This document shows, in pieces, positions 34,526 to 52,971 of a stretch of DNA of 64,000 nt (its first letter is position 1; every line of letters starts with the position of its first letter). The translations under genes were made by a program, and so were the position numbers. Source of the stretch: Ignavibacteriales bacterium (lineage in GTDB: Bacteria > Bacteroidota > Ignavibacteria > UBA10030). The notes beneath the pieces were generated by a model that was not told the DNA's origin, did not search any database, and worked only from the letters and a program-made list of their open reading frames with translations. The stretch lies in contig JAPLFQ010000011.1 of NCBI GenBank assembly GCA_026390595.1, positions 5,340 through 69,339 of the forward strand, in the 5' to 3' direction.

Positions 34526-36841
34526 CTATTTCGCCGAAGGTGCGCTGGGTCTTGCCGCCTCCGCGGCTATCGTCAGCATCAGTTGTGTAGCGTTGCGCAC
34601 GAGATTTGCGTCGAGTTTGTCGGAGGTATCCGAGGACTTATGATAGAACGGATCAAAACCTCCCCAAATTTCCATCGCGGTCCCTTCTGATAGGTCGATA
34701 GCCGAATACCCCTGGCGTATGAACGACTCGTGATCACTTCCGCCCATAGCTGCCGTATGTGCATCGAGGATGAATCCGAGAGCGTAGCGACCATTGAAGA
34801 GAAGTGTCGAATCCATCAGGGGTGTCCATTCTTTCCCCGTGCTCACCGCAATTCGGTTTGGATCACCCAGGACCGGGTAACCAATCATGTCGGCGTTGAC
34901 AACAGTCACGATATTGCGTCCATTCCTTCTTGCATCCTGCGCATAGATGCCGCTTCCTACCAGTCCCCTCTCCTCGGCAGCCGCAGCAAGAAACCGAATC
35001 GTACGTTCGAACTTGTATCGGCTGCAAATTCGCGCAACTTCCAGCACTGCCGCCGTCCCACTCGCATTGTCATTCGCACCCGGGACATCACTGTGTGCCG
35101 AGTCATAGTGCCCTACGAGAATCACCTCACCCGCATACGGATTTGATCCCTTGAGTGTCGCGCAGAGATTCCGGGAACGAAGCGGAGCAAAAGTACTTAG
35201 CTTTGACGAAAGTGATTTCCAAGTGTTCCCCCGATCGTGACTGATGAGCAACTCTCCATTCACACCGGAACCGAGGGCTACATTTCCGTTCCCGCTGCTG
35301 AGTTTCCGTATCGGCTGGAGCTCTTTTCGTGCTTCCGCCCAGTGTCGGCCACCGTCGCTGGTCTCAATAGGATGGCTGGAAATGCCTGCATCGGTAATCC
35401 ACCCTTTTTGCGCGGTCGCGAAGAGCATGCCCGAAGGACGCAATTCATTCCTTTCAATCCGAGACCATTTCCATGTTCTCCCGCCATCATTCGTCCTGAG
35501 CAAGATTGCATTGTCACTGAGAAGCATTCCTCGTTCTCGGTCGAGGAACTGAATGTGAAACAGATTGCACGAGATACCCAAAAGAACTTGCGACCACGTT
35601 TTCCCCCCATCTGATGAGTGCAGCAACACTCCGCCTGAGCCGATAACCCACAAGTTCTTGGAGTTCAACGCTTCAATACCATGCAGATTTGCTACGCTTG
35701 GAGTACGAACACGTTGCCACCGGTTTCCGCCGTTCTCCGTCCTCAGAATGATCCCATTGTTTCCAACCACGATTGCTTCCTGAGGAGAGAGGCACCGAAT
35801 ATCGGAAAACCACGTGACAGTGTCTGGCCGTTGGACGATCCACGATTGGCCTCCATCGGTCGTACGAAGGATCCGATTCATCGCGCTGATCGCGAAGCCG
35901 ATGCGGTCATCGAAGAATGCAAGGCGTAGGAACGGTTCCCTGCCAGTATAGCGACACTTCCATGATCCTCCTCCATCGGTCGAGCTGAACAGCTCACCCT
36001 GGTAGTCGGAGCAGAACAACGTGCGGTCGTTCACTACTTGCACATGCCAAAATGTTCGCGAGACTTCGCCGAACCTGAGCGACTCGACGTCAAGACCATA
36101 CCCTTTGAATTTCCTGATGATCAATTCTGCAGCAGAGTCCTCCTGCGGCGAATATTCTACTCTCGTACCAAATTTCTCGAGTTGGCGGATGTTGCCGAGG
36201 AGAGAGTCCGATGAGACAGAACGTATCATGTTCTTTATCATGATGTTTGGCTGACCCGCCGGGGTCGAAGTGATTCGCTCTACTCGCCTTCGTTGCGCCG
36301 CATCCTGAATGGGTTGCAGCCTGAACCTTTTGCGCATAAGTTGTCGGGCATCCCGCTGTGAAACCTCGACGCGATACGTATTCTGAGTGTGCTGAAGAAC
36401 TTTCAGCTTCGGGGCGATTTTGTGGACATCCTCAATCGTCCGCCCCTGGAAGAGCCCGAGCGTCGCAAGAGTGATCTCATCTTCTCCGCGGAAGTTTTCA
36501 TAGGTGGGGTACAAGGCATATGCCGCCGCGAGAAATCCGAACACGTACCTGAGTGCCTTCGTCCACGAAATCCCCGGAATCCTCGGGTAGAGGCTTTTTG
36601 CGAAACCCCAACCGATGAGGGAAAGACCGACGCCGATTGCAACGAGAACAAACCGTGGCGATTCCATTCCGATCTTAGCCCGAGAGATGATTCTGAACAC
36701 AAAGACCCATACGACAATCACTTCAGCGAGAATCGCCACAGCGAAGATCTTCTTCACGAGATCCATTGAAATTGATTTCGTCTCTGGCTCAGGAAGGGAC
36801 CCTGTATTCGGGCGTTCGGAATTGTCGGTCGGCATACTCAT
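34526..36841 (-). CDS. membrane-anchored BNR/Ycf48-like beta-propeller fused to an M28 aminopeptidase
   Basis: N-terminal TMs; at least 5 BNR motifs (TDGGQSW, SDGGKTW, NDGGRTW, SDGGRHW, HDRGNTW); M28 motifs HYDS...GANDNASG and AAEERGLVGS. Confidence 0.8.
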   Translation of the reverse strand: MSMPTDNSERPNTGSLPEPETKSISMDLVKKIFAVAILAEVIVVWVFVFRIISRAKIGMESPRFVLVAIGVGLSLIGWGFAKSLYPRIPGISWTKALRYVFGFLAAAYALYPTYENFRGEDEITLATLGLFQGRTIEDVHKIAPKLKVLQHTQNTYRVEVSQRDARQLMRKRFRLQPIQDAAQRRRVERITSTPAGQPNIMIKNMIRSVSSDSLLGNIRQLEKFGTRVEYSPQEDSAAELIIRKFKGYGLDVESLRFGEVSRTFWHVQVVNDRTLFCSDYQGELFSSTDGGGSWKCRYTGREPFLRLAFFDDRIGFAISAMNRILRTTDGGQSWIVQRPDTVTWFSDIRCLSPQEAIVVGNNGIILRTENGGNRWQRVRTPSVANLHGIEALNSKNLWVIGSGGVLLHSSDGGKTWSQVLLGISCNLFHIQFLDRERGMLLSDNAILLRTNDGGRTWKWSRIERNELRPSGMLFATAQKGWITDAGISSHPIETSDGGRHWAEARKELQPIRKLSSGNGNVALGSGVNGELLISHDRGNTWKSLSSKLSTFAPLRSRNLCATLKGSNPYAGEVILVGHYDSAHSDVPGANDNASGTAAVLEVARICSRYKFERTIRFLAAAAEERGLVGSGIYAQDARRNGRNIVTVVNADMIGYPVLGDPNRIAVSTGKEWTPLMDSTLLFNGRYALGFILDAHTAAMGGSDHESFIRQGYSAIDLSEGTAMEIWGGFDPFYHKSSDTSDKLDANLVRNATQLMLTIAAEAARPSAPSAK

Positions 36842-37008: not shown

Positions 37009-38109
37009 CTAGAAGATTTCCATCTGTGCATCGGCAGGTGAACGAAACTGGTCTGTCGAAAGTGACGCCTTCGCGTCGTTCAGGTGCAGCCGCTTGCAGA
37101 CTGTGTGGAACAGCTGCCCAATGGCCTCGGCAATTTGTCCCTCGCCCCTGAGCCGTTCGCCGAAGTCGGAGCATGAGAGGTTTCCGTTGCGGATGTCGCG
37201 TATGCGGTTAACAATTGCCGGAGCACGCTCGGGCATTTCCCGCTGCAGCCAATCGATGAACAGGTCCTTCACGGCATTGGGAAGCCGTACCATGGTAGAG
37301 CTGGCATACCTCGCCCCGCGGCGTGCGGCTTCCTGCACGATTGATGGAATCTCAGTGTCGTTCAAACCAGGGATGATCGGACACACGTTTACTCCGACAG
37401 GGATACCTGCCGTGGCAAGCATCTCGACCGTTTCAAGCCTCTTCGCCGGCGTGGATGTCCGCGGTTCCATCCGCCGGATGAGATCATGGTTGAGAGACGT
37501 GATACTGAGTGTGACAAGGACGAGATTGAGCGACGCGAGTTGTTTCAGGATATCGATATCACGCTGGACGAGCGCGTTCTTCGTGACGATCGAGACCGGA
37601 TTGCGGTATTGAAGAAAGACTTCAAGACATTTTCGCGTGAGTCCGAGTTTTCGCTCAATGGGCTGGTAACAATCGGTATCCCCGGACATCATGACGATTT
37701 GCGGCTTCCAGTTCCGGTTTCGGAATTGCTTTTCCAGGAGCACATGCGCATCGTGCTTGACCATGATCTTGGTCTCGAAGTCCAATCCTGAAGAGAAACC
37801 GAGATATTCGTGCGTCGGGCGCGCGTAACAATAGATACAACCACGCTCGCACCCGCGGTATGGATTCAGGCTGTACGTGAACGGGATATCGGGACTATCG
37901 TTTTTCGCGAGGATGGACTTTGTGTGATCGCTGTAGAATTTGGTGAGGACGTCTCGATCGGGCTCGGGATCTATGAAATACTGAGCCAGATCTTCCCCTA
38001 CTTTATCAACGGTGACGGATTCAAACCGGTTCGGAGGATTAAAACCCGCACCGCGTCCCTTTTTCATTTCTTCCCGTCTCACAATGCCTTCCTCTCGGGT
38101 TTGTTTCAC
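37009..38109 (-). CDS. radical SAM enzyme, PA0069 family (COG1533 SplB / DNA-repair-photolyase-like)
   Basis: KGRGAGFNPPNRFE N-terminus and a CERGCIYCY (CxxxCxxC) cluster. The start may be ATG 38067. Confidence 0.85.
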   Translation of the reverse strand: MKQTREEGIVRREEMKKGRGAGFNPPNRFESVTVDKVGEDLAQYFIDPEPDRDVLTKFYSDHTKSILAKNDSPDIPFTYSLNPYRGCERGCIYCYARPTHEYLGFSSGLDFETKIMVKHDAHVLLEKQFRNRNWKPQIVMMSGDTDCYQPIERKLGLTRKCLEVFLQYRNPVSIVTKNALVQRDIDILKQLASLNLVLVTLSITSLNHDLIRRMEPRTSTPAKRLETVEMLATAGIPVGVNVCPIIPGLNDTEIPSIVQEAARRGARYASSTMVRLPNAVKDLFIDWLQREMPERAPAIVNRIRDIRNGNLSCSDFGERLRGEGQIAEAIGQLFHTVCKRLHLNDAKASLSTDQFRSPADAQMEIF

Positions 38110-38276: not shown

Positions 38277-40607
38277 CTAGTTTCCCACCCGCATGTGCAA
38301 CAGCGGAATCTGTTTGGCCAAGGCCTCCGCACGCGCATGCAGCAGACGGCCACGCTTCGATGTTATCTTCTGTACCGGAGGCGTAAGGCCGAGTTCGTCC
38401 TTGAGCGTCTGCACATCGTACCCGAACGGAAAGAGCAGTGTCTCCGCCGCCTTCAACGCAAACTCCGTGTACTGTTCGATGTCGTACCCATCCTCGAACG
38501 CATACAGCGCGAGCGGCTTTGCTTTCTCCGGCTTCTTTTTCCCCGATTGATCGAGGATAATAAACTCGATCGATTCGCCGGCCGCGAGCGATACCCCCAT
38601 TCCCTGCACCAGCTTCGCGACAACGGCACTGAGGCTGTTGTTCGTGTACTCATCCGCCTCCTTGGTGATGTGACGGCGGAGAACCAACTCCATCGGGTTC
38701 GCCTTCCCGCTGCGTAGCACAGCAACGGCATTCCGTACAATCTCCACGAGATCGGGAACAAGCCCCCGTAGATCTTCAACGTTGTGCGCGCCAGACATCC
38801 GGTTCAGCATTGCCGTTTGCATGGTTTTGATAAACTTCGGTGTGTCGCGGCGTCGGGCTTCGATGCCACGGATCTTGATCTCGTCGTGGTGATACCACCC
38901 GACGTACCGGTTCGCCGTGGTGATCTCGGGATCGATTTTCGATGCGGGAAAGAGAATCCAGTTGTACATCCCCTCTAATGAAATATCGATACCCACTCTG
39001 CGGGAAATCGTACGGGCAAGCTCTTCGCACTCCTGTTCGGTCGCCCCCTCTTTCTTGATCCAGACACAATCGATGATGGCGTGAAGGAGATGAAACCCAT
39101 GCTCCTCGGCAATTTCTTTTGCCATCAGGATTGCGTCGCGGGAAAACGCGTTGACCGACTCGTGCGCCTCGATCTTCCCGAACCGTGCGTTCTTGTAGCC
39201 AAGATAGCCAAAGCAGCTGACGAGCATCCACTTCAGGGCGTTCTGGCGGCGGTCGTACTTCCGGAACAACACATCGTCCTTCCCCTTGTATTTCTTTTTC
39301 ATCGCCTTGTAGTACGCACGTTTCTCTACAACCGCCTTGAGCGTTGCAGGCACTATGCCTACGCGTTTTTCGCAAATCGAGTAGCCAAGCTCCGGCACCT
39401 TTTCGTTCTTGCAGCACCGGCAGTTCACCGTCTCCGGTGAAACGTTGTGTGTCACCATGATCGTCGGATACATCGATACAAAATCGAGTTCCGCCACCTC
39501 TTCATGATAGCCGAGCGGCGGGTTGAAGATGAGTCCACCCCGATCGGCCAGCAGGAGCGTTGCAGCCGATTTGAAATCTTCCGGCTCACGTTTTTTCGAC
39601 GGAATCAGGATATTGTGCTGGTACGCCCACGATAGCTGGAGTGACGACATCGACGTACCGATGCTTGCCCGCCCCTGCCGCTGGCCGCACATTTGCGTCA
39701 GGCGCGCCATCTCGAACAGGCCGTCCAGGTCCGCTTCGGCAACCGTCATCGAGTTGGTGGCATCCACATGCCATCGCCCGGCAAGCTCAAATGCACCATC
39801 TTTGTGGACAACCTTGCCGTACTGAAAGAAGCTCGATTCCTTCGTCGTTACATATCCCGCATCCTGATCGCGATTCAGCAGCAGCGGTACCTTGTGCTGT
39901 TGTGCCAGCGCTGTCAATTGCGGCATCAGGACTGCATCGCCGTAATCGGTCAGAATAATATCCGGATCGTACCGGTGCAGATGCCAGTTCAGCGATTCCA
40001 GAACCTCCTCTCCTGTTTCCTGTTCGAGCACATACGTGCGGTCCTCGTACGTCACCTCGAGCTGGAGACGCTTCTGGTACTTCGGCGGAACAAAATCGTT
40101 TCCGTTCCGGAGCAGCAGGATGGAAAACGGCGGGAGTGCATACTCCGTTGCTTCGCGTGAATCGCGCAGCCTCCACTCGATGAGTTCCTCCTGCTCATCG
40201 ATCTCATACTCGCCGAAGCCGAGCGGAAAGAGCGTCGTCGCGTATAAAAAAAGCTGCGGGACAAGGATATCGGAATTGAAGAACGCGAAGTGCGGAAAGA
40301 AGCGCTCGTAGTACCACACAACCTCGCGGAAACGCGTCGTGTCGTGTACGTGAATTTCGAGCACGTCGAGCAGCTCGCCGGAATAGATTTCTGTCTTCGT
40401 CGTGCGTGTGACCGTGACGGGAACCGGACAGCGCTCGGCAAGTACCTCGGCACGCCGGGCATCGGATGTGTTCAGGTGAAGAAAAAAGGAGGGCGTGAAC
40501 CTTCGAAAACAGCGGTGCTTCCCGCCGTTCTCATCGATGAACCAGAGCGTGATGCCCCGGGACGAAGGATAACAATCGAATAACCAACCGGTGAGTGTGT
40601 GGGGCAT
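38277..40607 (-). CDS. family-B DNA polymerase, exonuclease-inactivated, non-canonical motif C
   Basis: Motif A DFVSMYPT; motif B KWMLVSCFGYLGY; motif C HAIIDCVW in place of Y-x-DTD-G/S; RRRDTP and KxY-type regions present. Exo I (LLLRN for FDIE) and Exo II (YGDAVL for NGDNFD) lack the acidic residues. Confidence 0.9.
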   Translation of the reverse strand: MPHTLTGWLFDCYPSSRGITLWFIDENGGKHRCFRRFTPSFFLHLNTSDARRAEVLAERCPVPVTVTRTTKTEIYSGELLDVLEIHVHDTTRFREVVWYYERFFPHFAFFNSDILVPQLFLYATTLFPLGFGEYEIDEQEELIEWRLRDSREATEYALPPFSILLLRNGNDFVPPKYQKRLQLEVTYEDRTYVLEQETGEEVLESLNWHLHRYDPDIILTDYGDAVLMPQLTALAQQHKVPLLLNRDQDAGYVTTKESSFFQYGKVVHKDGAFELAGRWHVDATNSMTVAEADLDGLFEMARLTQMCGQRQGRASIGTSMSSLQLSWAYQHNILIPSKKREPEDFKSAATLLLADRGGLIFNPPLGYHEEVAELDFVSMYPTIMVTHNVSPETVNCRCCKNEKVPELGYSICEKRVGIVPATLKAVVEKRAYYKAMKKKYKGKDDVLFRKYDRRQNALKWMLVSCFGYLGYKNARFGKIEAHESVNAFSRDAILMAKEIAEEHGFHLLHAIIDCVWIKKEGATEQECEELARTISRRVGIDISLEGMYNWILFPASKIDPEITTANRYVGWYHHDEIKIRGIEARRRDTPKFIKTMQTAMLNRMSGAHNVEDLRGLVPDLVEIVRNAVAVLRSGKANPMELVLRRHITKEADEYTNNSLSAVVAKLVQGMGVSLAAGESIEFIILDQSGKKKPEKAKPLALYAFEDGYDIEQYTEFALKAAETLLFPFGYDVQTLKDELGLTPPVQKITSKRGRLLHARAEALAKQIPLLHMRVGN

Positions 40608-40632
40608 AAATTCAGCGGGATGATGAAAAATA

Positions 40633-40728
40633 AACCGCCAAGCACGCCAAGAACCGCAAAGAATAGATAGGGGTATTTCTGCAGGTCAACACTCCAACTA
40701 CCTAGCGTTCTTGGCGGACTTTGCGGTT
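40633..40728. repeat. word-type inverted repeat (AACCGCCAAG/GCCAAGAACCGCAAAG vs CGTTCTTGGCGGACTTTGCGGTT)
   Basis: Read directly in the spacer between PolB and the 91-aa gene. Confidence 0.55.
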
Positions 40729-40749
40729 CATCTTTGTTAACAAACAAAA

Positions 40750-41025
40750 TCACGGTTTCTCATCGGCGAGACGGCCTTCGAGCCGGACAATCCGATCCTG
40801 CAACTGGTTGATCAACTTTCGCTGCTCGACTGCAATGGAAACGACGATGCTCTCAAAGGGAATTGTCCGCATCGCATAAAAATTTTCCGCGAGGTGAAGT
40901 TTCGCCGCACGGAAGACATCGTCAAAGACGTTCTGGTCTTCTTTGCGAAGTCCCCGGCGGTATTTCGACCAGCTCGCAATTTCGCTGTCAATGATATTGG
41001 TAAACGTCGGGACAGTCCGCCCCAT
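40750..41025 (-). CDS. 91-aa protein of unknown function with a C-terminal coiled-coil-like helix
   Basis: Clean ORF immediately upstream of PolB on the same strand; no motif recognised. Confidence 0.55.
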   Translation of the reverse strand: MGRTVPTFTNIIDSEIASWSKYRRGLRKEDQNVFDDVFRAAKLHLAENFYAMRTIPFESIVVSIAVEQRKLINQLQDRIVRLEGRLADEKP

Positions 41026-41059
41026 ACCGATCGCTCCTTTCGTCTCCCATACTCATATT

Positions 41060-41150
41060 GTTTAACCACGGATCACACAGAAACCACACGGATTGCCACA
41101 GATTGTTTTGTCCGCGTAAATCCGTCACATCCGTGTCATCCGTGGTTATT
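41060..41150. repeat. CCACGGAT-family palindromic element, copy 1
   Basis: Terminal 10-bp perfect inverted repeat AACCACGGAT (41064-41073) / ATCCGTGGTT (41138-41147). Confidence 0.75.
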
Positions 41151-41167
41151 CTTTCCTGCGTTCATTC

Positions 41168-41542
41168 CTATTCGTCTTCGGCAAACGTCAGGATATATCC
41201 GTTGACGTCCTTGATGGAAAACTCCGTGGCTCCGTAAAACGTTTTTTCCAGTCCCTTGAGAACCGTGACTTTGTCTTTCACGCTTGTAAAAAAAACTCGG
41301 ATGTTCTTCAGCTTGATGTACAGCAGCAGCGAACCCCCATCGCGGCGGCTGACATCCGGCAACGCGTCACCCAGGCTGGTGAACGTCTGGAACATGAGAG
41401 AAACACTGCCGCAGGTCATCATCGCCCATACATAATCCCCCTGTTCGGGGACAGTCATGGCCAGCTCAAAGCCGAGGATTTTGTAAAACGCTATCGTTGC
41501 ATTCATGTCTTTTACAAAAATGTTTGGGGAGAGACTTTCCAT
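41168..41542 (-). CDS. VOC/glyoxalase-fold protein (bleomycin-resistance-like size)
   Basis: 124 aa with IFVKDMNATIAFYKILGFE and FSIKDVNGYILTF beta-alpha-beta-beta-beta modules. Confidence 0.8.
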   Translation of the reverse strand: MESLSPNIFVKDMNATIAFYKILGFELAMTVPEQGDYVWAMMTCGSVSLMFQTFTSLGDALPDVSRRDGGSLLLYIKLKNIRVFFTSVKDKVTVLKGLEKTFYGATEFSIKDVNGYILTFAEDE

Positions 41543-41590
41543 GGCTGCACCTTTTGTGTTGAGTGGGTGATGTTATGAACCAGGATTCGC

Positions 41591-41714
41591 TTTATCCATG
41601 TCAATCCGTAACAATCTGTGTTATCCGTGGTTGCTTTGTGTTTAACCACGGATTACACGGAAACAGCACGGATGATCACAGATTTGTTTAATCCGTGTCT
41701 TCTGTGGTTAATTT
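41591..41714. repeat. CCACGGAT-family palindromic element, copy 2
   Basis: Shares 43 + 14 identical nt with copy 3. Overlaps the last codons of the GxxExxY ORF. Confidence 0.75.
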
Positions 41715-42098
41715 CGATGCCTTTCGGTCATTCGTGAGGATTCGCCTGACGATCTGAGGTTTAGGCCCAAAGTTTAGCAACAACCCTACTTCAATCTCAG
41801 TGCTTTTTAAGTAGTTGATCAGCTGAGCTTCATGTTCGGGAGCAAGAACTTCTGCTGCTTTCAATTCCAGGACAACACAATCATTCACTACAAGATCTGC
41901 ATAGTAATCACCTACTCGTTGCGCGTCATAGAAAACTTCTACTCGTTTCTGTTGCTCACTGATCAATCCTTTCTTCCGCAGCTCGATCGCCAGGGCATTT
42001 TCATACACCTTCTCAAGAAAACCATAACCTAAACCATTGTAGACGGTATAGAAAGCGCTGATGATCTTTCCTGTGAGTGCTTCGTGTATCATAGACAT
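41688..42098 (-). CDS. GxxExxY protein (PD-(D/E)xK nuclease-like family)
   Basis: GYGFLEKVYENAL (G-x-x-E-x-x-Y), D..V....VLELK core, and NYL..T....GLLLNFG. Confidence 0.9.
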   Translation of the reverse strand: MSMIHEALTGKIISAFYTVYNGLGYGFLEKVYENALAIELRKKGLISEQQKRVEVFYDAQRVGDYYADLVVNDCVVLELKAAEVLAPEHEAQLINYLKSTEIEVGLLLNFGPKPQIVRRILTNDRKASKLTTEDTD

Positions 42099-42106
42099 GC
42101 TCCCTC

Positions 42107-42285
42107 ATCCATATCAATCTGTGTCATCCATGGTTGCTTTGTGTTTAACCACGGATTACACGGAAACAGCACGCCTGCCTGCCGAAGTGCCTTCGGCACG
42201 CAGGCAGGGATGATCACAGATTCATTTTCATCCGTGTAAATCTGTAACGATCCGCGTCATCCGTGGTTGCTTTGTCTTTATCCGC
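42107..42285. repeat. CCACGGAT-family palindromic element, copy 3, carrying a nested 35-nt hairpin insertion (42174-42208)
   Basis: 42131-42173 is identical to 41628-41670. 42209-42222 is identical to 41671-41684. Confidence 0.75.
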
Positions 42286-42937
42286 GCAGCGAGCGCTGGC
42301 CGGTCATCGTTCCTTTCTCCAGCAATACCACCGGTCGATTGGTGCCATCGTCTGTGAGCCGGTAGATCGTATCCATCCCGGTCTTGAGCGTCGTGAACAA
42401 CTGGTTGCGCTCCTTCGGCAGGACGTTCCACTCCGTGCATGCCAGCAGCACGGAAACGCCGTTTCCTTTGATATCCTGCAATGTCCCGAGCAGCCGCCGC
42501 AGAATTTGCTGCACTTCCCGGAACGACGCCTGTTCGTCATAGAATGTGTCGAGCAAGCCGAAGATCATCGCGATGTTTGAGCCAATGGACTCGAGAAACA
42601 GCGGCAACCGCGCACTGACCGCCTGCTCCATCTGGTAACAGGTAAAACCGCGGGAAATGAAAATGCGGCGCAGGAATTCATCCGGGTCGATGCGCCGCTC
42701 ACGCGCAAAGCGGGAGAGCAGATGCACATTGAACCGGTTACACCCATCCACCACCGCAACGGAACTCCCCTGTGTCATCGCATGGGCCGCCATCCTGAGT
42801 GAGAGATTGAAGATGAACTTGTCGCCGTACAATAGACAGACCTTGCCCGGGGGCGCAACAAATGATTGGACCAGCGCCTGGGAAGCGATGGGGCCTGGAA
42901 GATGTCCGGCATCCGAAGAGAACATCATAGCTGTCAC
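42278..42937 (-). CDS. RecA/RadB-fold protein with a degenerate Walker A (ImuA-like candidate)
   Basis: LLYGDKFIFNLSL occupies the place of G-x-x-G-x-GK-T/S. VVDGCNRFN, RIFISRGFTCYQ and VLLAC strands follow the RecA/Rad51-paralog pattern. Confidence 0.55.
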   Translation of the reverse strand: MTAMMFSSDAGHLPGPIASQALVQSFVAPPGKVCLLYGDKFIFNLSLRMAAHAMTQGSSVAVVDGCNRFNVHLLSRFARERRIDPDEFLRRIFISRGFTCYQMEQAVSARLPLFLESIGSNIAMIFGLLDTFYDEQASFREVQQILRRLLGTLQDIKGNGVSVLLACTEWNVLPKERNQLFTTLKTGMDTIYRLTDDGTNRPVVLLEKGTMTGQRSLRG

Positions 42938-43020: not shown

Positions 43021-43263
43021 ATGCAAAAGGTCATGCTCACCCTGCCGGACGATCTCCTTGAGGAAATTGCCCGCGCCATGCAGCACAGCCAACAGAATCG
43101 GAGCGCGTTCGTCCGTCAAGCCGTGCGCGAGCACGTCGACCGTCTGAAGAAGAAAGAACGAGAGCAATTGATGGCCGAAGGATATTGCGAACAAGCTAAA
43201 GAAAACAAGCGCGACGCCAAAGCATACCTGAGAACAACTCGCGATCTCGGAGAAGACAAATAA
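43021..43263 (+). CDS. ribbon-helix-helix (CopG/MazE-type) antitoxin
   Basis: MQKVMLTLPDDLLEEI...RSAFVRQAV RHH motif. Its TAA overlaps the toxin ATG (TAATG). Confidence 0.75.
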   Translation: MQKVMLTLPDDLLEEIARAMQHSQQNRSAFVRQAVREHVDRLKKKEREQLMAEGYCEQAKENKRDAKAYLRTTRDLGEDK

Positions 43264-43616
43264 TGCCGTTCAAACGGGGTGATATTGTCTTGCTGCCATT
43301 CCCGTACGTTCAGAACTACAAAAAGGGGAAAACCCGCCCAGCACTCGTCGTCCAGAATAACATTGCAAACGAGTTTAGCCCCAATGTGATCGTGGCTTTG
43401 ATCTCTTTGGCCCTTCCGTCAAAAGCGTACCCAATGCATTTCTTGATTGACCTTGACGCCGAACCTCGCTGCGGACTAACCAAGAATTCAATTGTTAAAT
43501 CAGAGGTTGTCATCACGATTCCCAAAGAGGCCGTGGTACGAAAGTTGGGATCTCTGTCCAGCATGGCAATGAAAAGCGTCGACGAGTGTCTTCGAATAAG
43601 CCTGGCACTCGATTAA
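43263..43616 (+). CDS. MazF/PemK-family endoribonuclease toxin
   Basis: RGDIVLLPFP...GKTRPALVVQ signature; 117 aa. Confidence 0.85.
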   Translation: MPFKRGDIVLLPFPYVQNYKKGKTRPALVVQNNIANEFSPNVIVALISLALPSKAYPMHFLIDLDAEPRCGLTKNSIVKSEVVITIPKEAVVRKLGSLSSMAMKSVDECLRISLALD

Positions 43617-43639: not shown

Positions 43640-44359
43640 ATGTGCGGCCGCTACGCCATTATCGATGGAAAAAAAGTGCTTGTCGCCTACACGGCACTCA
43701 ACAAAGCGAAGATTACAGACACAGTGTTTCAAGAACTTCCGCTCTACAACGCTGCTCCCATGCAGCGCCTCCCCGTGTTTGCCGTCCGGCACGACGAGCT
43801 CGTTGCAGAACCGATGCAATGGTGGCTGATTCCTCACTGGTCAAAAGACGGAAAACCGGCGTTCTCCTCTTTCAACGCCAAAGCCGAAACGCTGGACCAG
43901 AGCAAGCTGTTCGCCACCTATTTCAAAGGAAGCCGCTGTCTCATTCCCGCCGATGCGTTCTACGAATGGCAGCGTGTGACAACAACGCAAGAGGTCCGCG
44001 GCAAGTCAAAGAAGGTTGAAGAAAAACATCCCATGTGCATCCGCATGAAGGACGAGGCCCCCATGCTGCTTGCCGGATTGTTTTCCATCTGGAAGGATGC
44101 AACGGGAAACGAGCGCCCCACGTTCACGATCATCACCACCGAACCGAACGAGTTGATGGCCCCGATTCATAACCGTATGCCCGTCATCCTGCCGGAACAG
44201 CACATCGAACAGTGGCTCGACCGGTCGTATAAGGACACCGCGAACCTTAAACAACTCCTCGCCCCCTACCCGGCAAAAAAGATGAAAGCCCACCGCGTTT
44301 CATCATTCGTCAGCAATCCGCGCAATGAGTCGGCGGAGTGTATGAAAGAGGTGGAATAG
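43640..44359 (+). CDS. SOS-response-associated peptidase (SRAP / YedK-HMCES family)
   Basis: The start MCGRY gives the catalytic Cys2. Also AAPMQ, WWLIPHW, FNAKAET, CLIPADAFYEW and MAPIHNRMPVIL. Confidence 0.9.
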   Translation: MCGRYAIIDGKKVLVAYTALNKAKITDTVFQELPLYNAAPMQRLPVFAVRHDELVAEPMQWWLIPHWSKDGKPAFSSFNAKAETLDQSKLFATYFKGSRCLIPADAFYEWQRVTTTQEVRGKSKKVEEKHPMCIRMKDEAPMLLAGLFSIWKDATGNERPTFTIITTEPNELMAPIHNRMPVILPEQHIEQWLDRSYKDTANLKQLLAPYPAKKMKAHRVSSFVSNPRNESAECMKEVE

Positions 44360-44468: not shown

Positions 44469-45398
44469 TTACGCCACCTCCGCAAACAACGGATGCTGCA
44501 CGTTGACCGGCGCGCTGATCTGTTTCAGCGCGGGAAACGCTGCGACAAGATTCTGCGGCACGAGAACGCGGTGCTTATGGCGCACCAGATGCCGCAGCTG
44601 AAATCCGTTCACCAGTGAATTCGCCTCCGGGTCGTTGTGAAAAACGACAAAGGTCGTGCTGCCGCGCTGCCGCATCTGTTCAATCAGCGCGAGCAAATCT
44701 CCGAGTTCGCGGTCGTTGTACAGATAACGGTACCGGTCGCTGACAAGGTAGTTTCCGCTCTGGTGCTTCGTGAACGGACGATCCCACGTCATCACGTTTC
44801 TCCCCATCATCCGGAAGTATGCTGCACCGTTCCACGACTGACTCGTGAACGGCATATGCTGCTTGATGCCCGGCAGATCGACATTCACCATGTGGAGTTT
44901 GTTTTCCTGGAAGAAGTTGTACATCAACGGGCTGTTCCAGGAATTGTGCCGGACTTCCACAAACAGCCGATGTGGCTGGAACGCTTTTGCAAGCTGCATC
45001 AGGTACGTGCGGCGTTCACCGATGTTGGTAAAGGAATACGGGAACTGGATGAGGAGCCCTCCCAGTTTCCCGGCCGCAGCGAGGGGCTCCAGCATGCGGT
45101 GCACGGCCCGTACATCGCCGTAATCGGCTGTGTAGGTATGCGTAAATCCGTTGAAAAGCTTTACGGTAAAAATAAAATCCTTGTTCCCCGATACATCCGT
45201 CAGCCACCGCCGCGCATGGGCGGGCGACAGCGACGTGTTATAGAAGGTGGCGTTGATCTCGACGCTGTCGAAAAACTGGCTGTAGTACTCCAGCTTCCGA
45301 AAATCCTTTCTGGGACGCGGCGGATAAAAGACCTTGCTGAACGGCTCCAGATCCCATCCCCCCATCCCGACGAAGATTTTTTCCCGATCAAGATTCAT
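44469..45398 (-). CDS. DUF72 (YecE/UPF0759) family protein
   Basis: GMGGWDLEPF...FYPP, LEYYSQFFDSVEINATFY and FIFTVK. Confidence 0.9.
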   Translation of the reverse strand: MNLDREKIFVGMGGWDLEPFSKVFYPPRPRKDFRKLEYYSQFFDSVEINATFYNTSLSPAHARRWLTDVSGNKDFIFTVKLFNGFTHTYTADYGDVRAVHRMLEPLAAAGKLGGLLIQFPYSFTNIGERRTYLMQLAKAFQPHRLFVEVRHNSWNSPLMYNFFQENKLHMVNVDLPGIKQHMPFTSQSWNGAAYFRMMGRNVMTWDRPFTKHQSGNYLVSDRYRYLYNDRELGDLLALIEQMRQRGSTTFVVFHNDPEANSLVNGFQLRHLVRHKHRVLVPQNLVAAFPALKQISAPVNVQHPLFAEVA

Positions 45399-45514: not shown

Positions 45515-45619
45515 TTGACAGCAACCGGAAATTTGCCTATCTTTGCCTGACCAATCATACGACATTTTTGTCGTCTTGTCAAGAAGAAAGTTGACAAAAT
45601 TGTCATTTGGGAATATTAC
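45515..45619. promoter_or_regulatory. divergent promoter region with two NGACA-N4-TGTCN palindromes (45560-45573, 45592-45605) and TTGACA-17-TATTAC (45591-45619)
   Basis: CGACATTTTTGTCG and TGACAAAATTGTCA read directly. The second overlaps the -35/spacer of a good sigma-70-like promoter facing the S24 repressor gene. Confidence 0.45.
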
Positions 45620-45721: not shown

Positions 45722-46372
45722 ATGAAGCATACCATTGCACAACGGATCCGTCAGGCACGCACAGAGAAAGAAATGGACCAGGCAAAACTCGCTGCGAAGC
45801 TCGATGTAGCGGTGCGCACTGTGCAGCGATGGGAAAAAGGGGAGCAGGTGCCCGATAGCAATTACCTCATGCGTATCGCGAAGGTCACGGGCGTGGCGCC
45901 GCATTGGCTCCTCGCGGGCGCCGGCGAGATGTACGCCACGTCGCAGGGGGAATCGAAAATCATTCCATTGCCGACCAGCCGCTACAAGCGCGTGGAGCTC
46001 GTCTCGCTCCCGCTCCTCTCCTCCGTCCCAGGCGGCGCGCCGAGCTTGATGTTCCATCCCGACTACGTGGAGAAGTACATCACGGTCGACGACATCAAGG
46101 ATTCAAACGCGTTCGCGTTGGAGGTAAAAGGAAACAGCATGGCGCCGCGCATCGAAGACGGCGACATCATTGTCGTCAGTCCGAAGCTCGAGTCGCGCAC
46201 CGGGGACATCTGCGTGGTGCGCATAAACGAAGAGGATACAGTGAAGCGGGTTAAAATTGAAGATCAGTTCATCCATCTCATACCGCTGAATCAGGAATAT
46301 GAACCGATGGCGGTACGAAAGAAGGATGTGTCGTTTATGTGGAGAGTGGTGAAGGTGATCAAAAGCGTCTAG
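45722..46372 (+). CDS. XRE-HTH + S24 peptidase repressor (LexA/CI-like, self-cleaving type)
   Basis: The N-terminal HTH (IRQARTEKEMDQAKLAAKLDVAVRTVQRWEKG), an AG candidate cleavage site (LLAGAGE), the Ser in GNSMAP and the Lys in VKRV. Confidence 0.85.
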   Translation: MKHTIAQRIRQARTEKEMDQAKLAAKLDVAVRTVQRWEKGEQVPDSNYLMRIAKVTGVAPHWLLAGAGEMYATSQGESKIIPLPTSRYKRVELVSLPLLSSVPGGAPSLMFHPDYVEKYITVDDIKDSNAFALEVKGNSMAPRIEDGDIIVVSPKLESRTGDICVVRINEEDTVKRVKIEDQFIHLIPLNQEYEPMAVRKKDVSFMWRVVKVIKSV

Positions 46373-50088: not shown

Positions 50089-52971
50089 CTAGTGGCGCAA
50101 TTGCTCCGAAATCCACGCGAGGTACGCTTCCATCTTGCCGAGGAAGTTCAAGTACGCGGTCGACCATTCGATCGGATTGGCAGGCTGGTTCTTGCCGAGA
50201 CACTCCTGGAACACCTTCGACACCGAGGTCGCGATACGATGCTTGCTCTCCTCGACGACTGCTTCCATTGCCGACGAGTAGTACGCGCGCAGATTGTTGA
50301 TGTCCCAACGCACGCGTGCTTCCGGCGTCTGCTTCGCGAAGAACGAAAGGTCGGTTTTTCCTGCGCCGGACATTTCGTAGACGAGCAGGTTCCATCGCTC
50401 CATCGTCTTCCGGAATTCGTCCTCGTTGCGGCAGCCGTCCAGGGGCAGGCGCGCGGCGGCAAGTTCAGTTCCGATCGAGTAACGGAAGAGGAGATCGCCG
50501 CCAAGGTACTGTGACAGGAGGTTTGCGTCTTTTCTCAATCCCAGCACACGATGTGCGGCAAGGTAGATTTCCTGGTCAAAATCCCTGCCGGTGAAAACTT
50601 GCTGTGGTTGAAGCTTGGCCATCATCTTCATCCGTACGTCCAACTCTACATCCTGTGCGCTCGCCGGCGAATCCGCCTGCTTCTTCTCAGCGGCTGCCCC
50701 CGGTCCTCCGGCAGCAGGGCTCAGGAGTTTTTCCCGGACATCCCAGCTCATGTCGTCAAACGTTTTTGCACTGGCGCTGAGCGGAGGCGCAGCGCTCGAT
50801 TGTGCCTGCAGCAGCATGAGAAACTTCGTGATCAGCCGGTCCCGATACACGGTTTTGAAATGACCCATATCGGCGACAACGTAGAGATCTTCTTCGACGC
50901 ACGAGAGGACTGAATTAAGGAAGCGCGCAAGACGGTGTTCCCCGATCTTCCGGTCGTCAAGATAGCGCATGGTGTAGTCAACGCCGGCCATGGAGAGATC
51001 GAAGATAATTACTTTCTTTCGCCGGCCGAAGTACGTCGCAGGCGTGCCCACCTCGACATTCCGGATGCCCTGAAGCCGCAGCTGGAGCTTTGTATAGAGC
51101 GTCGTCCCAGGGAAGGGTACGATAATCCCTACGTCGCTTGCGCGGCGCTGACCCCGCGCGAGCGCGTGTTTGACAACATCCATGGTCCGTTTCGTCTGCA
51201 CATCGTTGAACGGAATGAGGCTCTTCTTTCCAAGGTATTGCCGGCAGGTCGATTTTGCGTCGCTCGTGTCGAGAACCACGATCGCCCCCCCCGTCCCGGG
51301 ACGCTCCTGCACCTGAAGCTTGTTGTCGAAGAAGAATGCGGATACGAACCGAGAGAGCTTCAAGGCTGTGGCAACGTGCGCCATCAGCTGAAAGCACCAT
51401 GTCGGGTTCTTCTGGGTCCATTCGTGCAGCTGGTTCAACTGCTCTGTCTGCGCAATCTTGAGGAATATATCCTGCTGAATCCACTCTTCCGCCAGGTCAC
51501 TCTTGGAGAACGATTCCGGTCCAGGCTGAAACGGGTCCCCTGCAATCACCATCGCGGCGGTTGCCTTCGCTGACAGCGCAGCGAGGTATGCAGGTGCGAC
51601 GCGTTCTGCGTCGTCAACAAGGATCAGGTCAAAATTACGATCGCGGACGCGCTGGTCGGAGAAAAACCATGTCAGGCTCGCAGCGACACACCGCTTCGTC
51701 GAGACGAGCGCAGTCTCATCCACGGCGCTCAGGTTGTCAACTTCATCGGTTACGTTCTTGATCCCCCCCAATTCACCGAGGCGTCTGACTGCCACCTGGT
51801 ATTCCTTCAGCTCTCCCGATTCAATTGGTGCCTGGGACTCCACCCGCATCAGCTCCGTCGTAAGAGCCTGCTGGACAGGCTGGAGTTTCTTCATCAGCAT
51901 CAGTTTCTCAGTGAGCTGCTTTTGTGCCGCAGCTGCTTCTTCCTTGCTGAAACCCTTCTTGAATTTTTCCATCATCGACGCGTTTTGTGCGCGCGTGATT
52001 ATCTCTTTGAGGGCGGCGGTTTCATCCCGGAGTTTCTCGAGCTGTTTCCGCGATTCATTCGTTCGCTCGCGAAGTTCAGTGAGCCGCGTGTAATAATCAT
52101 CGTGGAGATACTGATGAATTTTCGTCTTCCAGTACGACCTCAGCAGCGCAACCCGTTCTTCCAGCTGCTTCTTCTTGTCGGTCCGCTTCGTCTCGACCTC
52201 GTTCTCGAATGAGACTGGAGCCAGGACAGCTGCCGAGGGATAGGCAGGGAGACCGACCCGGCTTGTCAACCCATTGAGGTCGATGCCTGCATCCCTGGCA
52301 AGTGCAAGCGTTTTCAGAAGAAGCTGATCCGTCTGCAGTGTGGTAGTTGCCGTGAGGAGCACGCTTTTTCCAGCTTTGAGATAACTCAGGGCGATCAGTG
52401 CCAGCGTACTGGTTTTGCCGGATCGAACCGGTCCCCAAAGATAGGAGACGCGGTTCTGCAGGATTTTTTTGGCAACCTCAGTTACTTCCGCAGGGACGTT
52501 GGGGACCTGAACAGGCTCGGGGGAAGCTGTGTGCGTGTTGCCGGAACCCTCGGGATGCAAAAGCACCGAAGAAACCGGATGTTCTGCGCGCACTGCGGCA
52601 AGCATATCAGCCACGAACGGGAGGTGATCGTCGTAGCTCCACTTACATTTGATCTCCGGAAGAAGGGGGCCAAAATCCATGGGGAGAGCGATGACGATGT
52701 ACTGGTTTTCAAAGCCGACAATCCTGCCGTCCATCGTCACGGGCTGCAACTGGTTGAAACTGCACGACACGCGATCGACAGGGCGGAGAGCAAGGTCTTC
52801 GGGCAGCTCAAACCGGTAGTAGAAGAATCCGGCCATCGAACCGACCTGTTCGCCGCCGAAGAGAATGATCTCGGTGCGTGCACTCTGCAGTTTTGCGCGT
52901 TCCTCCCGCAGCGCTTGAGCCGGCTGAGCGAAGAGGAAAGATTCTGTTGATCCGGTAGCTGGAGAACTCAT
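50089..52971 (-). CDS. Upf1/DNA2-like SF1 P-loop protein with a coiled-coil insert, degenerate RecA2 motifs and an unknown C-terminal domain
   Basis: GPVRSGKTS Walker A, LILVDDAE Walker B and IAGDPFQ motif III. Motifs IV-VI are eroded (LMAHV, GTPATYFGRRKK; no TRA-type Arg finger). Confidence 0.75.
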   Translation of the reverse strand: MSSPATGSTESFLFAQPAQALREERAKLQSARTEIILFGGEQVGSMAGFFYYRFELPEDLALRPVDRVSCSFNQLQPVTMDGRIVGFENQYIVIALPMDFGPLLPEIKCKWSYDDHLPFVADMLAAVRAEHPVSSVLLHPEGSGNTHTASPEPVQVPNVPAEVTEVAKKILQNRVSYLWGPVRSGKTSTLALIALSYLKAGKSVLLTATTTLQTDQLLLKTLALARDAGIDLNGLTSRVGLPAYPSAAVLAPVSFENEVETKRTDKKKQLEERVALLRSYWKTKIHQYLHDDYYTRLTELRERTNESRKQLEKLRDETAALKEIITRAQNASMMEKFKKGFSKEEAAAAQKQLTEKLMLMKKLQPVQQALTTELMRVESQAPIESGELKEYQVAVRRLGELGGIKNVTDEVDNLSAVDETALVSTKRCVAASLTWFFSDQRVRDRNFDLILVDDAERVAPAYLAALSAKATAAMVIAGDPFQPGPESFSKSDLAEEWIQQDIFLKIAQTEQLNQLHEWTQKNPTWCFQLMAHVATALKLSRFVSAFFFDNKLQVQERPGTGGAIVVLDTSDAKSTCRQYLGKKSLIPFNDVQTKRTMDVVKHALARGQRRASDVGIIVPFPGTTLYTKLQLRLQGIRNVEVGTPATYFGRRKKVIIFDLSMAGVDYTMRYLDDRKIGEHRLARFLNSVLSCVEEDLYVVADMGHFKTVYRDRLITKFLMLLQAQSSAAPPLSASAKTFDDMSWDVREKLLSPAAGGPGAAAEKKQADSPASAQDVELDVRMKMMAKLQPQQVFTGRDFDQEIYLAAHRVLGLRKDANLLSQYLGGDLLFRYSIGTELAAARLPLDGCRNEDEFRKTMERWNLLVYEMSGAGKTDLSFFAKQTPEARVRWDINNLRAYYSSAMEAVVEESKHRIATSVSKVFQECLGKNQPANPIEWSTAYLNFLGKMEAYLAWISEQLRH

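Follow-up and report, generated by a model that had tools for sequence, protein, structure and literature searches.

A PolB2-family DNA polymerase with its conserved partner genes and damage-response neighbours in an Ignavibacteriales genome

The window analyzed here, which is the whole stretch of 64,000 nucleotides taken from contig JAPLFQ010000011.1 of an Ignavibacteriales bacterium, carries an intact gene for a family-B DNA polymerase (polB2), genes for its two obligate partner proteins, which accompany this polymerase in other bacteria (PPB2 and iRadA), and a set of neighbours related to the DNA-damage response (Table 1). The interval from PPB2 to polB2 contains a strong hairpin with a U-run after it (40608-40749), and the Rfam and tRNA scans of the window returned no matches.

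Table 1. Features of the polB2 locus, with positions numbered along the window.
Feature	Position	Strand	Basis
PA0069-family radical SAM gene (related to spore-photoproduct lyase)	37009..38109	-	NF033668, 468 bits against a cut-off of 360
polB2, PolB2 (bacterial G2) family-B DNA polymerase, 776 aa	38277..40607	-	ATG start, intact ORF
Q766-I-P-L-L770, candidate beta-clamp-binding peptide	38298..38312	-	Conservation in clade and disordered tail
Motif C, H509-A-I-I-D513 (HxxxD for YxDTD)	39069..39083	-	HMMER alignment
Motif A, DFVSMYPT	aa 375; D375 codon 39483..39485	-	Metal-ligand Asp
Motif B, KWMLVSCFGYLGY	aa 459	-	Sequence; lysine K459
RRRDTP segment	aa 585	-	Sequence
PPB2, small helical PolB2 partner, 91 aa, N-terminus MGRTVPTF	40750..41025	-	ORF translation, synteny
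Insertion within operon: two cargo genes and repeats	41040..42301	-	Pfam
Glyoxalase/bleomycin-resistance-fold gene	41168-41542	-	Pfam
PD-(D/E)XK_3 gene	41688-42098	-	Pfam
iRadA, RadA/Rad51-like core without P-loop, 219 aa	42278..42937	-	PDB matches, synteny
mazE-like (RHH) and mazF/pemK toxin-antitoxin pair	43021..43616	+	Pfam RHH_1 8e-07, PemK_toxin 4e-23
SRAP (YedK/HMCES-like abasic-site protein)	43640..44359	+	Pfam SRAP, E 3e-62
DUF72 (TIM-barrel, related to UV-damage endonuclease)	44469..45398	-	Pfam DUF72, E 2.6e-46
Promoter-like TTGACA-17-TATGAT with twin palindromes GACA-N4-TGTC	45554..45604	-	Sequence pattern
LexA-like repressor: HTH_3 (XRE) N-domain and S24 autopeptidase C-domain	45722..46372	+	Pfam, NCBIfam

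Identification of the partner genes was performed by phmmer searches against the PDB, the MGRT motif and conserved synteny, and no Pfam family matched iRadA or PPB2, even at an E-value of 10. Of 64 loci, 61 have an ORF homologous to PPB2 immediately preceding polB2, and in 57 of these 61 it carries the MGRT peptide, which has been defined as the N-terminal arm of PPB2 (PMC11791011). The iRadA product showed weak matches to RadA in the PDB (E 0.0015), and the region corresponding to its Walker A motif reads LLYGDKFIF, with no GxxGxGK(T/S) and with G38 as the only residue conserved among homologues. In a set of 64 bacterial loci that spans at least seven phyla, 60 have such a homologue ahead of PPB2 and PolB2, in the order iRadA-PPB2-PolB2. 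The window keeps this bacterial order with two genes interspersed, an arrangement already described as a variant (PMC11791011).

The interspersed genes belong to an insertion marked by the repeat AACCACGGATnACACnGA, of which the whole window holds eight copies, all between 41064 and 42268, where 0.01 would be expected by chance. In the closest relative (L001) the cargo genes are absent and the corresponding spacer of 262 bp carries a single copy of the repeat. The repeat-flanked cargo genes within the polB2 operon are recorded here as an observation in their own right. L001 also lacks the mazEF-type pair that sits between SRAP and iRadA. Considering that family-B polymerases of bacteria are frequently found on mobile elements, the cargo genes and the toxin-antitoxin pair could suggest that polB2 serves a casposon, pipolin, phage or plasmid embedded in the chromosome as its replicative or self-replicating polymerase. 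We regard this as extremely unlikely, since synteny with a related MAG extends over ordinary genes of the chromosome (ABC transporter, amylase, CNNM), and the toxin-antitoxin pair and the cargo are insertions that this MAG lacks. Moreover, no integrase, Cas1, terminal protein or terminal inverted repeats were seen among the ORFs examined, the operon with its fixed partners occurs in at least 590 genome stretches, and a replicase would be expected to retain proofreading.

Assignment of the polB2 product to family B, proposed in the first-pass annotation from motifs A and B and the RRRDTP segment, was confirmed by the match to Pfam DNA_pol_B (PF00136; E 2.4e-34) and by the location of all of these motifs. 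The similarity to canonical enzymes is unevenly distributed along the protein: single-sequence searches matched structures of Thermococcales PolB at 1e-45 in the polymerase half only (1e-102 with a family profile), while the N-terminal and exonuclease half had almost no canonical PolB match, the exonuclease region of Pyrococcus abyssi reaching 6.3 bits in a single-sequence search and the exonuclease-domain Pfam model only E 0.076. This same half matched a Bathyarchaeota PolB2 with 33% identity (E 4e-63), and the N-terminal 392 residues are 68% identical to MBI3110573.1, a catalogued Ignavibacteriales PolB2 in which the motif HAIIDCVW(L/I) is identical. Structures of E. coli Pol II matched at E 4e-5 only, which places the protein nearer to the catalogued PolB2 sequences than to Pol II. 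Among the curated NCBIfam models, the closest-scoring was NF004416 (type B DNA polymerase equivalog), with 391 bits over residues 8-691 and below its cut-off of 516, and NF004421 (Pol II) gave 69 bits against a cut-off of 570. The AF2 model (pLDDT 90.5) has a full-length TM score of 0.72 to the archaeal PolB of KOD and 9N. Proteins 94% identical to the polB2 product are present in public databases, and the dN/dS of polB2 against L001 is 0.055, showing that the gene is kept by strong purifying selection. Judged by its sequence, the polB2 product belongs firmly to PolB2, or bacterial G2.

The polymerase active site keeps both metal-binding aspartates and the motif B lysine. It has been established that PolB2 enzymes have an HxxxD motif C, in which DxD has lost its first Asp to substitution and retains the second (PMC8764526, PMC11791011), and that members of PolB2/G2 combine this single motif C Asp with absence of the exonuclease active site (PMC7544198, PMC11791011). 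HMMER pairs LHAIIDCVW of the polB2 product with LYIDTDGLY of P. abyssi, so that DTD aligns with IID and the retained Asp is the second one only, D513, as had been read in the first-pass annotation. This residue is found in all 120 family representatives and H509 in 112 of them, while position 511 is occupied by I, L, V, Y, N or M in 120/120 and by Asp in none. The motif-A residue D375 is likewise invariant (120/120), and D375, D513, K459 and Y380 are all invariant or almost so among the representatives. Besides, the ADRGG segment before motif A contains D355-R356, with D355 invariant, which we matched by position to the D(K/R) motif, conserved in PolB2 in the loop preceding motif A (PMC11791011). 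The KxY-type region that had also been proposed was not recovered, the motif reading N566-R567-Y568 (NRY) in the HMMER alignment.

Loss of the first DxD Asp, replacement of the YxDTD Tyr by His and the change from KxY to NRY would all agree with a catalytically dead pseudo-polymerase having a structural or regulatory role, which is how the PolB2 family was originally annotated in earlier literature (cited in PMC8764526 and PMC7544198). This explanation seems very unlikely to us, as the metal ligands D375 and D513 and the lysine K459 are invariant in the 120 representatives, the Sulfolobus Dpo2, which shares the IID motif, equals the replicase Dpo1 in activity (PMC8764526), and primer-independent PolBs, which also lack the first Asp, are active enzymes (PMC7544198). 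The retention of D375, D513 and the motif B lysine K459 in the palm leads us to predict normal two-metal DNA polymerization; the first Asp of motif C, which in other enzymes of family B faces away from the metals, would be dispensable in the PolB2 family.

In the exonuclease domain, the Exo II segment DYGDAVL aligns by HMMER with YNGDNF(D/A), and the position of the catalytic Asp is L227, in agreement with the earlier reading of YGDAVL as a site without this residue; position 227 is L, I or V in 98 of 120 representatives, and Asp is not among its common residues. For Exo I, the family profile places the strand FLAVDIETL on residues 142-150 (LIEWRLRDS), with D replaced by R146 and E by R148. 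The first-pass annotation had located this strand at LLLRN (residues 164-168), a register that would give L165/R167. We rejected it in favour of residues 142-150 on the profile alignment, which matches LLLRN to the following strand IIMISY, and on the strand order in the model. LLLRN is probably distinct from the Exo I strand. Nevertheless, neither register offers an Asp/Glu pair, so the conclusion of a dead exonuclease holds. The Exo III region is mostly deleted, as only 15 residues, counted on the sequence, separate GRWHVD from the helix aligned to QLSRL, which agrees with the Exo III loss reported in group G2 (PMC7544198). This group is recognized by an unconserved Exo I, a replaced Exo II Asp and a missing Exo III (PMC7544198), and the same state was found at the sequence level in the polB2 product (L227; R146/R148 or L165/R167; Exo III gap). 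With the Exo I and Exo II carboxylates replaced and Exo III deleted, we infer that the enzyme does not proofread, and the 3'-5' exonuclease domain would persist as a leftover scaffold.

These observations also bear on another reading, in which the gene would be orthologous to polB of E. coli (Pol II) and its exonuclease, though diverged, would still function. Database sources name its relatives 'DNA polymerase II' or 'DNA polymerase-2', and D149, a conserved acidic residue, adjoins the former Exo I strand. However, the match to Pol II is far weaker than that to archaeal PolB, the catalytic position of Exo II is hydrophobic across the family, Exo III is deleted, and the iRadA and PPB2 partners are a signature of PolB2. 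Neither the intact DEDD site nor the close similarity expected of a Pol II orthologue was found in the polB2 product, and we consider this identity extremely unlikely.

The C-terminus was the feature that the earlier reading had called weak, namely a loose resemblance of KQIPLLHM (beginning at residue 765) to a clamp-binding peptide, and it turned out to be better supported than thought. Close relatives carry QIPLF or ELPLF aligned to QIPLL, in tails that are divergent elsewhere, and the strict clamp pattern occurs in 49 of 119 close-relative tails, where 0.6 would be expected on shuffling. Residues 759-776 have pLDDT below 50 in the AF2 model. The alignment of QIPLL with QIPLF/ELPLF and the predicted disorder of the tail make a beta-clamp motif plausible, with the candidate peptide ending in L where those of the relatives end in F. 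Some bacterial PolB2s carry published clamp motifs (PMC11791011). Among distant bacterial PolB2 tails the clamp regex was found in 2 of 118 representatives and the strict pattern in 4 of 73 loci, and this rarity indicates a trait of the clade and not of the family.

The neighbourhood of the operon contains genes related to DNA damage. The occurrence of SRAP and DUF72 near polB2 has been reported as an enrichment, and LexA-like genes have also been published as polB2 neighbours (PMC11791011). For SRAP, a start giving MCGRY with Cys2 is likely from the sequence. Alignment of the C-domain of the LexA-like repressor to LexA of E. coli (E 2e-12) pairs GNSM with GMSM and VKRVK with VKRLK, and a homologue of this repressor was found in 28 of 58 loci. 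The twin GACA-N4-TGTC palindromes (45561-45572 and 45593-45604) constitute a candidate operator for this repressor, and the twin-site architecture recurs in eight further loci (L001, L003, L006, L007, L008, L012, L015, and L019), where it is often placed immediately before iRadA. No GACA-N4-TGTC was found directly upstream of iRadA in the window or in L001; the LexA-like gene and the twin operator of the window lie 2.6 kb upstream, facing DUF72. This lack weakens the case for co-expression and for LexA control of polB2 in the window, and the inserted cargo genes and the hairpin before polB2 are further points against. Another palindrome, TATACTGACAATAGTATA, located upstream of iRadA, was considered as an operator and set aside because it fits the mazE promoter better.

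Directly downstream of polB2, on the same strand, lies the PA0069-family radical SAM gene. A radical SAM gene at this position was found only in L001, L003, L008 and L012 (4 of 65 loci), so that this neighbour is lineage-specific, and our literature search on the PA0069 radical SAM family found no papers. For this Ignavibacteriota sub-lineage, it may be tentatively proposed, as a possibility that we rate as rather unlikely, that the PolB2 operon, the downstream radical SAM gene, the upstream SRAP and DUF72 genes, and an HTH-S24 repressor acting on a twin operator that overlaps a sigma-70-like promoter form one module. If this were true and the radical SAM enzyme acted on lesions that PolB2 extends past, it would represent a new coupling of repair and bypass, and the twin GACA-N4-TGTC operator would be an undescribed SOS-type box for the phylum.

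Altogether, the product of the gene is very probably the catalytic subunit of a PolB2 (G2) polymerase of bacteria, a lineage that bacteria acquired from archaea along with the genes of both partners. The biochemically characterized PolB2s that we found in the literature on the family are archaeal only, and the Sulfolobus enzymes, on which our extrapolation of activity is based, are about 30-35% identical to the polB2 product. It has been demonstrated that the Sulfolobus Dpo2, which has the same IID motif, is a robust polymerase with activity comparable to that of Dpo1, with undetectable 3'-5' exonuclease activity and with efficient extension of mismatches and past lesions (PMC8764526). By analogy, the PolB2 described here may act as a translesion extender of mismatched or lesion-opposed primer ends. 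The working complex would probably consist of PolB2, iRadA and a PPB2 trimer, the disordered QIPLL peptide would probably tether the polymerase to the beta clamp, and the putative LexA-like repressor nearby would probably couple expression to DNA damage. The earlier proposal of a non-proofreading, specialized enzyme distinct from a replicase is thus well in line with the literature on PolB2, the partner genes and the damage-response neighbours, while the wording 'low-fidelity' is apt only in part, given that archaeal Dpo2 inserts accurately on undamaged DNA and errs through the extension of mismatches.

The feature is real and already described, and it is not new: the PolB2 signature, comprising the dead exonuclease, the HxxxD/IID motif, archaeal ancestry, partners, neighbours and, in some members, a clamp motif, appeared in publications from 2008 to 2026. 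It can be recognized by a reader from raw sequence. What the locus adds is small and does not amount to a discovery: a radical SAM gene linked to polB2, a candidate operator, and cargo genes flanked by repeats. A locus with all partners and a clear C-terminal clamp-type peptide is a reasonable candidate for the biochemistry of bacterial PolB2.

When compared to known systems, the locus is most similar to bacterial PolB2 (G2, Kazlauskas et al., 2020; PolB2 mutasome, Timinskas et al., 2025), with which it shares the dead exonuclease site, the D(K/R) motif, the iRadA-PPB2-PolB2 order, the MGRT arm of PPB2, and the LexA, SRAP and DUF72 neighbours. It differs in the operon being broken by two cargo genes with short repeats, in the mazEF pair upstream, and in the PA0069-family radical SAM gene after polB2, which is confined to the sub-lineage of the window. 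The window protein has a C-terminal clamp-like motif, whereas the 2025 PolB2 catalogue lists none for its Ignavibacteriales entry MBI3110573.1. Dpo2 of Sulfolobus islandicus and S. solfataricus, according to its published description, has the same IID, HxxxD and lost Exo motifs, the iRadA and PPB2 partners and a damage-response context, but it is far shorter, its exonuclease domain is more decayed, it uses PCNA instead of the beta clamp, and the neighbouring regulator is orc1/cdc6 and not LexA. The archaeal B3-type replicative enzymes of Thermococcales (KOD, 9N, Tgo, Pfu) share the fold, motifs A and B and the RRD segment, while their active DEDD exonuclease, YxDTD and KKxY have no counterpart in the window protein. 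At the functional level, the mutasome of E. coli Pol V (UmuD'2C-RecA) is an analogue, being a damage-induced, non-proofreading translesion enzyme with a recombinase-like partner, although, as a family Y polymerase, it has no sequence relationship to PolB2. Finally, eukaryotic Pol zeta is likewise an extender of family B whose exonuclease domain is dead, differing in its eukaryotic origin and in its other accessory subunits.

The family-B polymerase flagged in the first-pass annotation is real, as a single intact ORF was found at the flagged coordinates and all the quoted motifs are present in its product. The family-B polymerase domain was assigned by Pfam to aa 322-699 (E 2.4e-34), and the exonuclease-domain model gave an E-value of 0.076 only. 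The best curated NCBIfam models were NF004416 and NF004418 (type B DNA-directed DNA polymerase), with scores of ~390 bits each that lie under the cut-offs of both models, and the E. coli Pol II models scored far below them. In a search of solved structures, the polymerase half matched Thermococcales PolB (~1e-45), and E. coli Pol II matched at 4e-5 only. The protein is 68% identical to MBI3110573.1, an Ignavibacteriales PolB2 (bacterial group G2 family-B polymerase) listed in a supplementary table with the motif HAIIDCVWL (PMC11791011), over the 392 N-terminal residues given there, and 33% identical to a Bathyarchaeota PolB2 across the same N-terminal half (E 4e-63). Proteins with 90-96% identity come from Bacteroidota and Ignavibacteria MAGs, and the gene surroundings are bacterial (SurA/PpiC, ABC-2 transporter, M28 peptidase, amylase, and CNNM).

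The active-site residues were evaluated in a family alignment of 120 sequences, made up of the query plus 119 cluster representatives (clustering at 50% identity; 32-72% identity to the query). HMMER aligned LHAIIDCVW with LYIDTDGLY of P. abyssi, and thus DTD corresponds to IID and D513 is the sole surviving Asp of motif C, as the first-pass annotation had proposed. Both D513 and D375 (motif A) are invariant, K459 is kept in 119/120 and H509 in 112/120 sequences, and position 511, the first Asp of DxD, is I, L, V, Y, N or M in all 120 and never Asp. Most PolB2 enzymes are known to substitute this residue, and the S. islandicus PolB2 reads 401-IID-403 (PMC11791011). The KxY-type region had been reported as clearly present, which requires correction: the position is occupied by N566-R567-Y568, and N-R-Y is found there family-wide.

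Four cysteines (C396, C398, C399, and C412; CxCC...C, ~39372-39422 on the minus strand) are each kept in at least 106 of the 120 sequences. C399 and C412 align with the cysteine pair of NCKE...FCKD in P. abyssi, which presumably forms a disulfide in Thermococcales PolB, and the remaining two suggest a possible metal site. Besides, in several PolB2 homologues of ~1200-1300 aa (P0132, P0161, P0162, P0164, P0174, P0178, P0186, P0211, and P0269), the match is broken near query residue 466, within motif B, a split consistent with intein insertions.

In a single-sequence search, hardly any similarity to canonical PolB structures was seen for the N-terminal and exonuclease half (6.3 bits for the P. 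abyssi exonuclease region), and the PolB2 family profile aligns this half with P. abyssi PolB at E 1e-21. For Exo II, the counterpart of YNGDNF(D) is DYGDAVL, placing L227 at the catalytic Asp position in agreement with the earlier reading, and this position is L, I or V in 98/120 sequences. For Exo I, the loss of the acidic pair stands in either register, and the placement at LLLRN probably does not: the profile puts the strand FLAVDIETL on aa 142-150, where R146 replaces the Asp and R148 the Glu, and assigns LLLRN to the next strand (IIMISY), with which the strand order of the structural model agrees. The Exo III region is reduced to 15 residues where a segment of ~85 would be, in line with the published absence of Exo III from B2/G2 enzymes (PMC7544198), and the PolB2 exonuclease domain has been described as lacking its active site (PMC11791011). 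Flanking the former Exo I strand, D149 is D or E in 103/120 sequences; its conservation, like that of N-R-Y, might have to do with the binding of partners or with tolerating mismatched primer ends.

Compared with the L001 locus, the closest of the related loci, polB2 showed 94% amino-acid and 88% nucleotide identity, with a dN/dS of 0.055. The confident AlphaFold2 model (pLDDT 90.5, pTM 0.85) matched archaeal PolB structures over the full length, with a TM of 0.72 to KOD/9N binary complexes. The final 18 residues are disordered in this model, and the resemblance of the C-terminus to a clamp-binding peptide, at first considered weak, gains ground as a candidate motif. Close relatives carry QIPLF, QELPLF, QIPLL, AELPLF, QLSLV or QLDLL at the same spot in otherwise divergent tails, and Q[LIVMF]x[LM][FL] occurs in 49 of 119 tails (0.6 expected after shuffling, 0 in internal control windows). 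The peptide in the window, a predicted binder, ends in L, not F. The motif is mostly absent from distant bacterial PolB2s, and in Chloroflexota loci it is found on the partner protein iRadA instead (QLRLF, QLNMF, and QPRLF), fitting the published either/or pattern.

The whole PolB2 operon is reported to have reached bacteria from archaea, with the invariable gene order iRadA-PPB2-PolB2 and, in some cases, other genes in between; the partner PPB2 bears an N-terminal MGRT arm, and lexA, SRAP, and DUF72 are enriched nearby (PMC11791011). A scan of species-representative genomes returned at least 590 related stretches, and the 80 loci examined, all bacterial, span Ignavibacteriota/Bacteroidota, Nitrospirota, Chloroflexota, Acidobacteriota, Thermodesulfobacteriota, Armatimonadota, Elusimicrobiota, and others. 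Same-strand upstream homologues of both partners were found in 60 of the 64 loci with enough upstream sequence, MGRT in 57 of 61 PPB2 homologues, and a LexA-like gene in 28/58 loci. The iRadA of the window lacks a P-loop: its sequence at that place is LLYGDKFIF, where homologues share a single conserved Gly. In two loci (L002 and L020), neither iRadA nor PPB2 could be recognised upstream of polB2.

Features of the polB2 region and twin sites in related loci
Feature	Position	Strand	Remarks
BNR/Sortilin-repeat + M28 peptidase gene	34526-36841	-	between radical SAM and ABC transporter genes; absent from L001 at that position
PA0069-family radical SAM	37009-38109	-	directly downstream of polB2, same strand; NF033668, 468 bits
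polB2	38277-40607	-	776 codons, ATG start
PPB2-polB2 spacer hairpin	40608-40749	-	29-nt arms; -50.3 kcal/mol, z -4.9
PPB2	40750-41025	-	91-aa ORF; N-terminus MGRTVPTF
Repeat AACCACGGATnACACnGA	within 41040-42301		8 copies flanking cargo genes; nowhere else in window; 0.01 expected by chance
iRadA	42278-42937	-	219-aa ORF; weak but consistent RadA ATPase core matches, E 0.0015
mazEF-like pair (RHH MazE/CopG-like antitoxin, PemK/MazF toxin)	43021-43616	+	between SRAP and iRadA
SRAP	43640-44359	+	near polB2
DUF72	44469-45398	-	near polB2
Twin palindromes GACA-N4-TGTC	45561 and 45593, within 45554-45604		32 bp apart
LexA-like repressor (HTH_3 + S24)	45722-46372	+	near polB2
Superfamily-1 helicase-like protein (AAA_11/AAA_12)	50089-52971	-	960 aa; few kb from damage-response cluster
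Twin site, L001	4768-4811
Twin site, L003	5717-5760
Twin site, L006	891-934
Twin site, L008	6769-6811
Twin site, L012	6887-6929
Twin operator, L002	7915-7957		immediately precedes polB2

Two cargo genes (PD-(D/E)XK_3 and glyoxalase-fold) are inserted in the iRadA-PPB2 spacer, which has the appearance of an insertion hot spot associated with repeats; the same spacer in L001 has one AACCACGGATnACACnGA copy and no cargo genes. The mazEF-like pair is also an insertion relative to L001, displacing the original divergent promoter region. The hairpin of the PPB2-polB2 spacer, absent from L001, is followed by the U-run UUUAUUUUU ~25 nt upstream of the polB2 start, and could be a terminator- or attenuator-like structure that attenuates read-through, or a small inserted element. 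The radical SAM protein has distant similarity to spore photoproduct lyase, and beyond the window its linkage to polB2 was observed in only 4 of 65 loci, the four closest ones (L001, L003, L008, and L012). Our literature search on PA0069-family radical SAM proteins found no papers; Radical_SAM is listed in the neighbourhood table of PMC11791011, and the main text does not take it up.

A sigma-70-like promoter (TTGACA-17-TATGAT) directed at DUF72 has one of the twin palindromes between its hexamers. The arrangement, with palindromes 31-32 bp apart, is kept in Ignavibacteriota relatives. Because the same twin-site promoter recurs in eight related loci, and in four of them (L003, L006, L008, and L012) stands immediately 5' of iRadA, the site is a good candidate for, and probably is, the operator of the LexA-like repressor. 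In the window, polB2 may be under damage control, and a twin site in front of iRadA was found neither there nor in L001.

Altogether, motif C, the dead exonuclease site, the MGRT arm, the operon order, and the neighbours are published PolB2 hallmarks, and the polymerase is a textbook and already known PolB2 member in the described genomic context of the family. The residual value is small: it comes from the lineage-specific radical SAM linkage, from the candidate operator, and from the limitation of the biochemistry in the cited papers to archaeal PolB2. The interpretation as a non-proofreading, specialised enzyme was essentially right and fits the published description of PolB2. Sulfolobus Dpo2 and SsoDpo2, which share the same motif C, incorporate nucleotides robustly with undetectable exonuclease activity, insert accurately on undamaged DNA and poorly opposite lesions, and efficiently extend mismatched and lesion-paired termini, a mode of action that the same authors proposed for the bacterial G2 enzymes (PMC8764526). 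A 2026 survey of bacterial polymerases (PMC12926913) classes G2/PolB2 as a TLS polymerase that is exonuclease-dead and was acquired horizontally.
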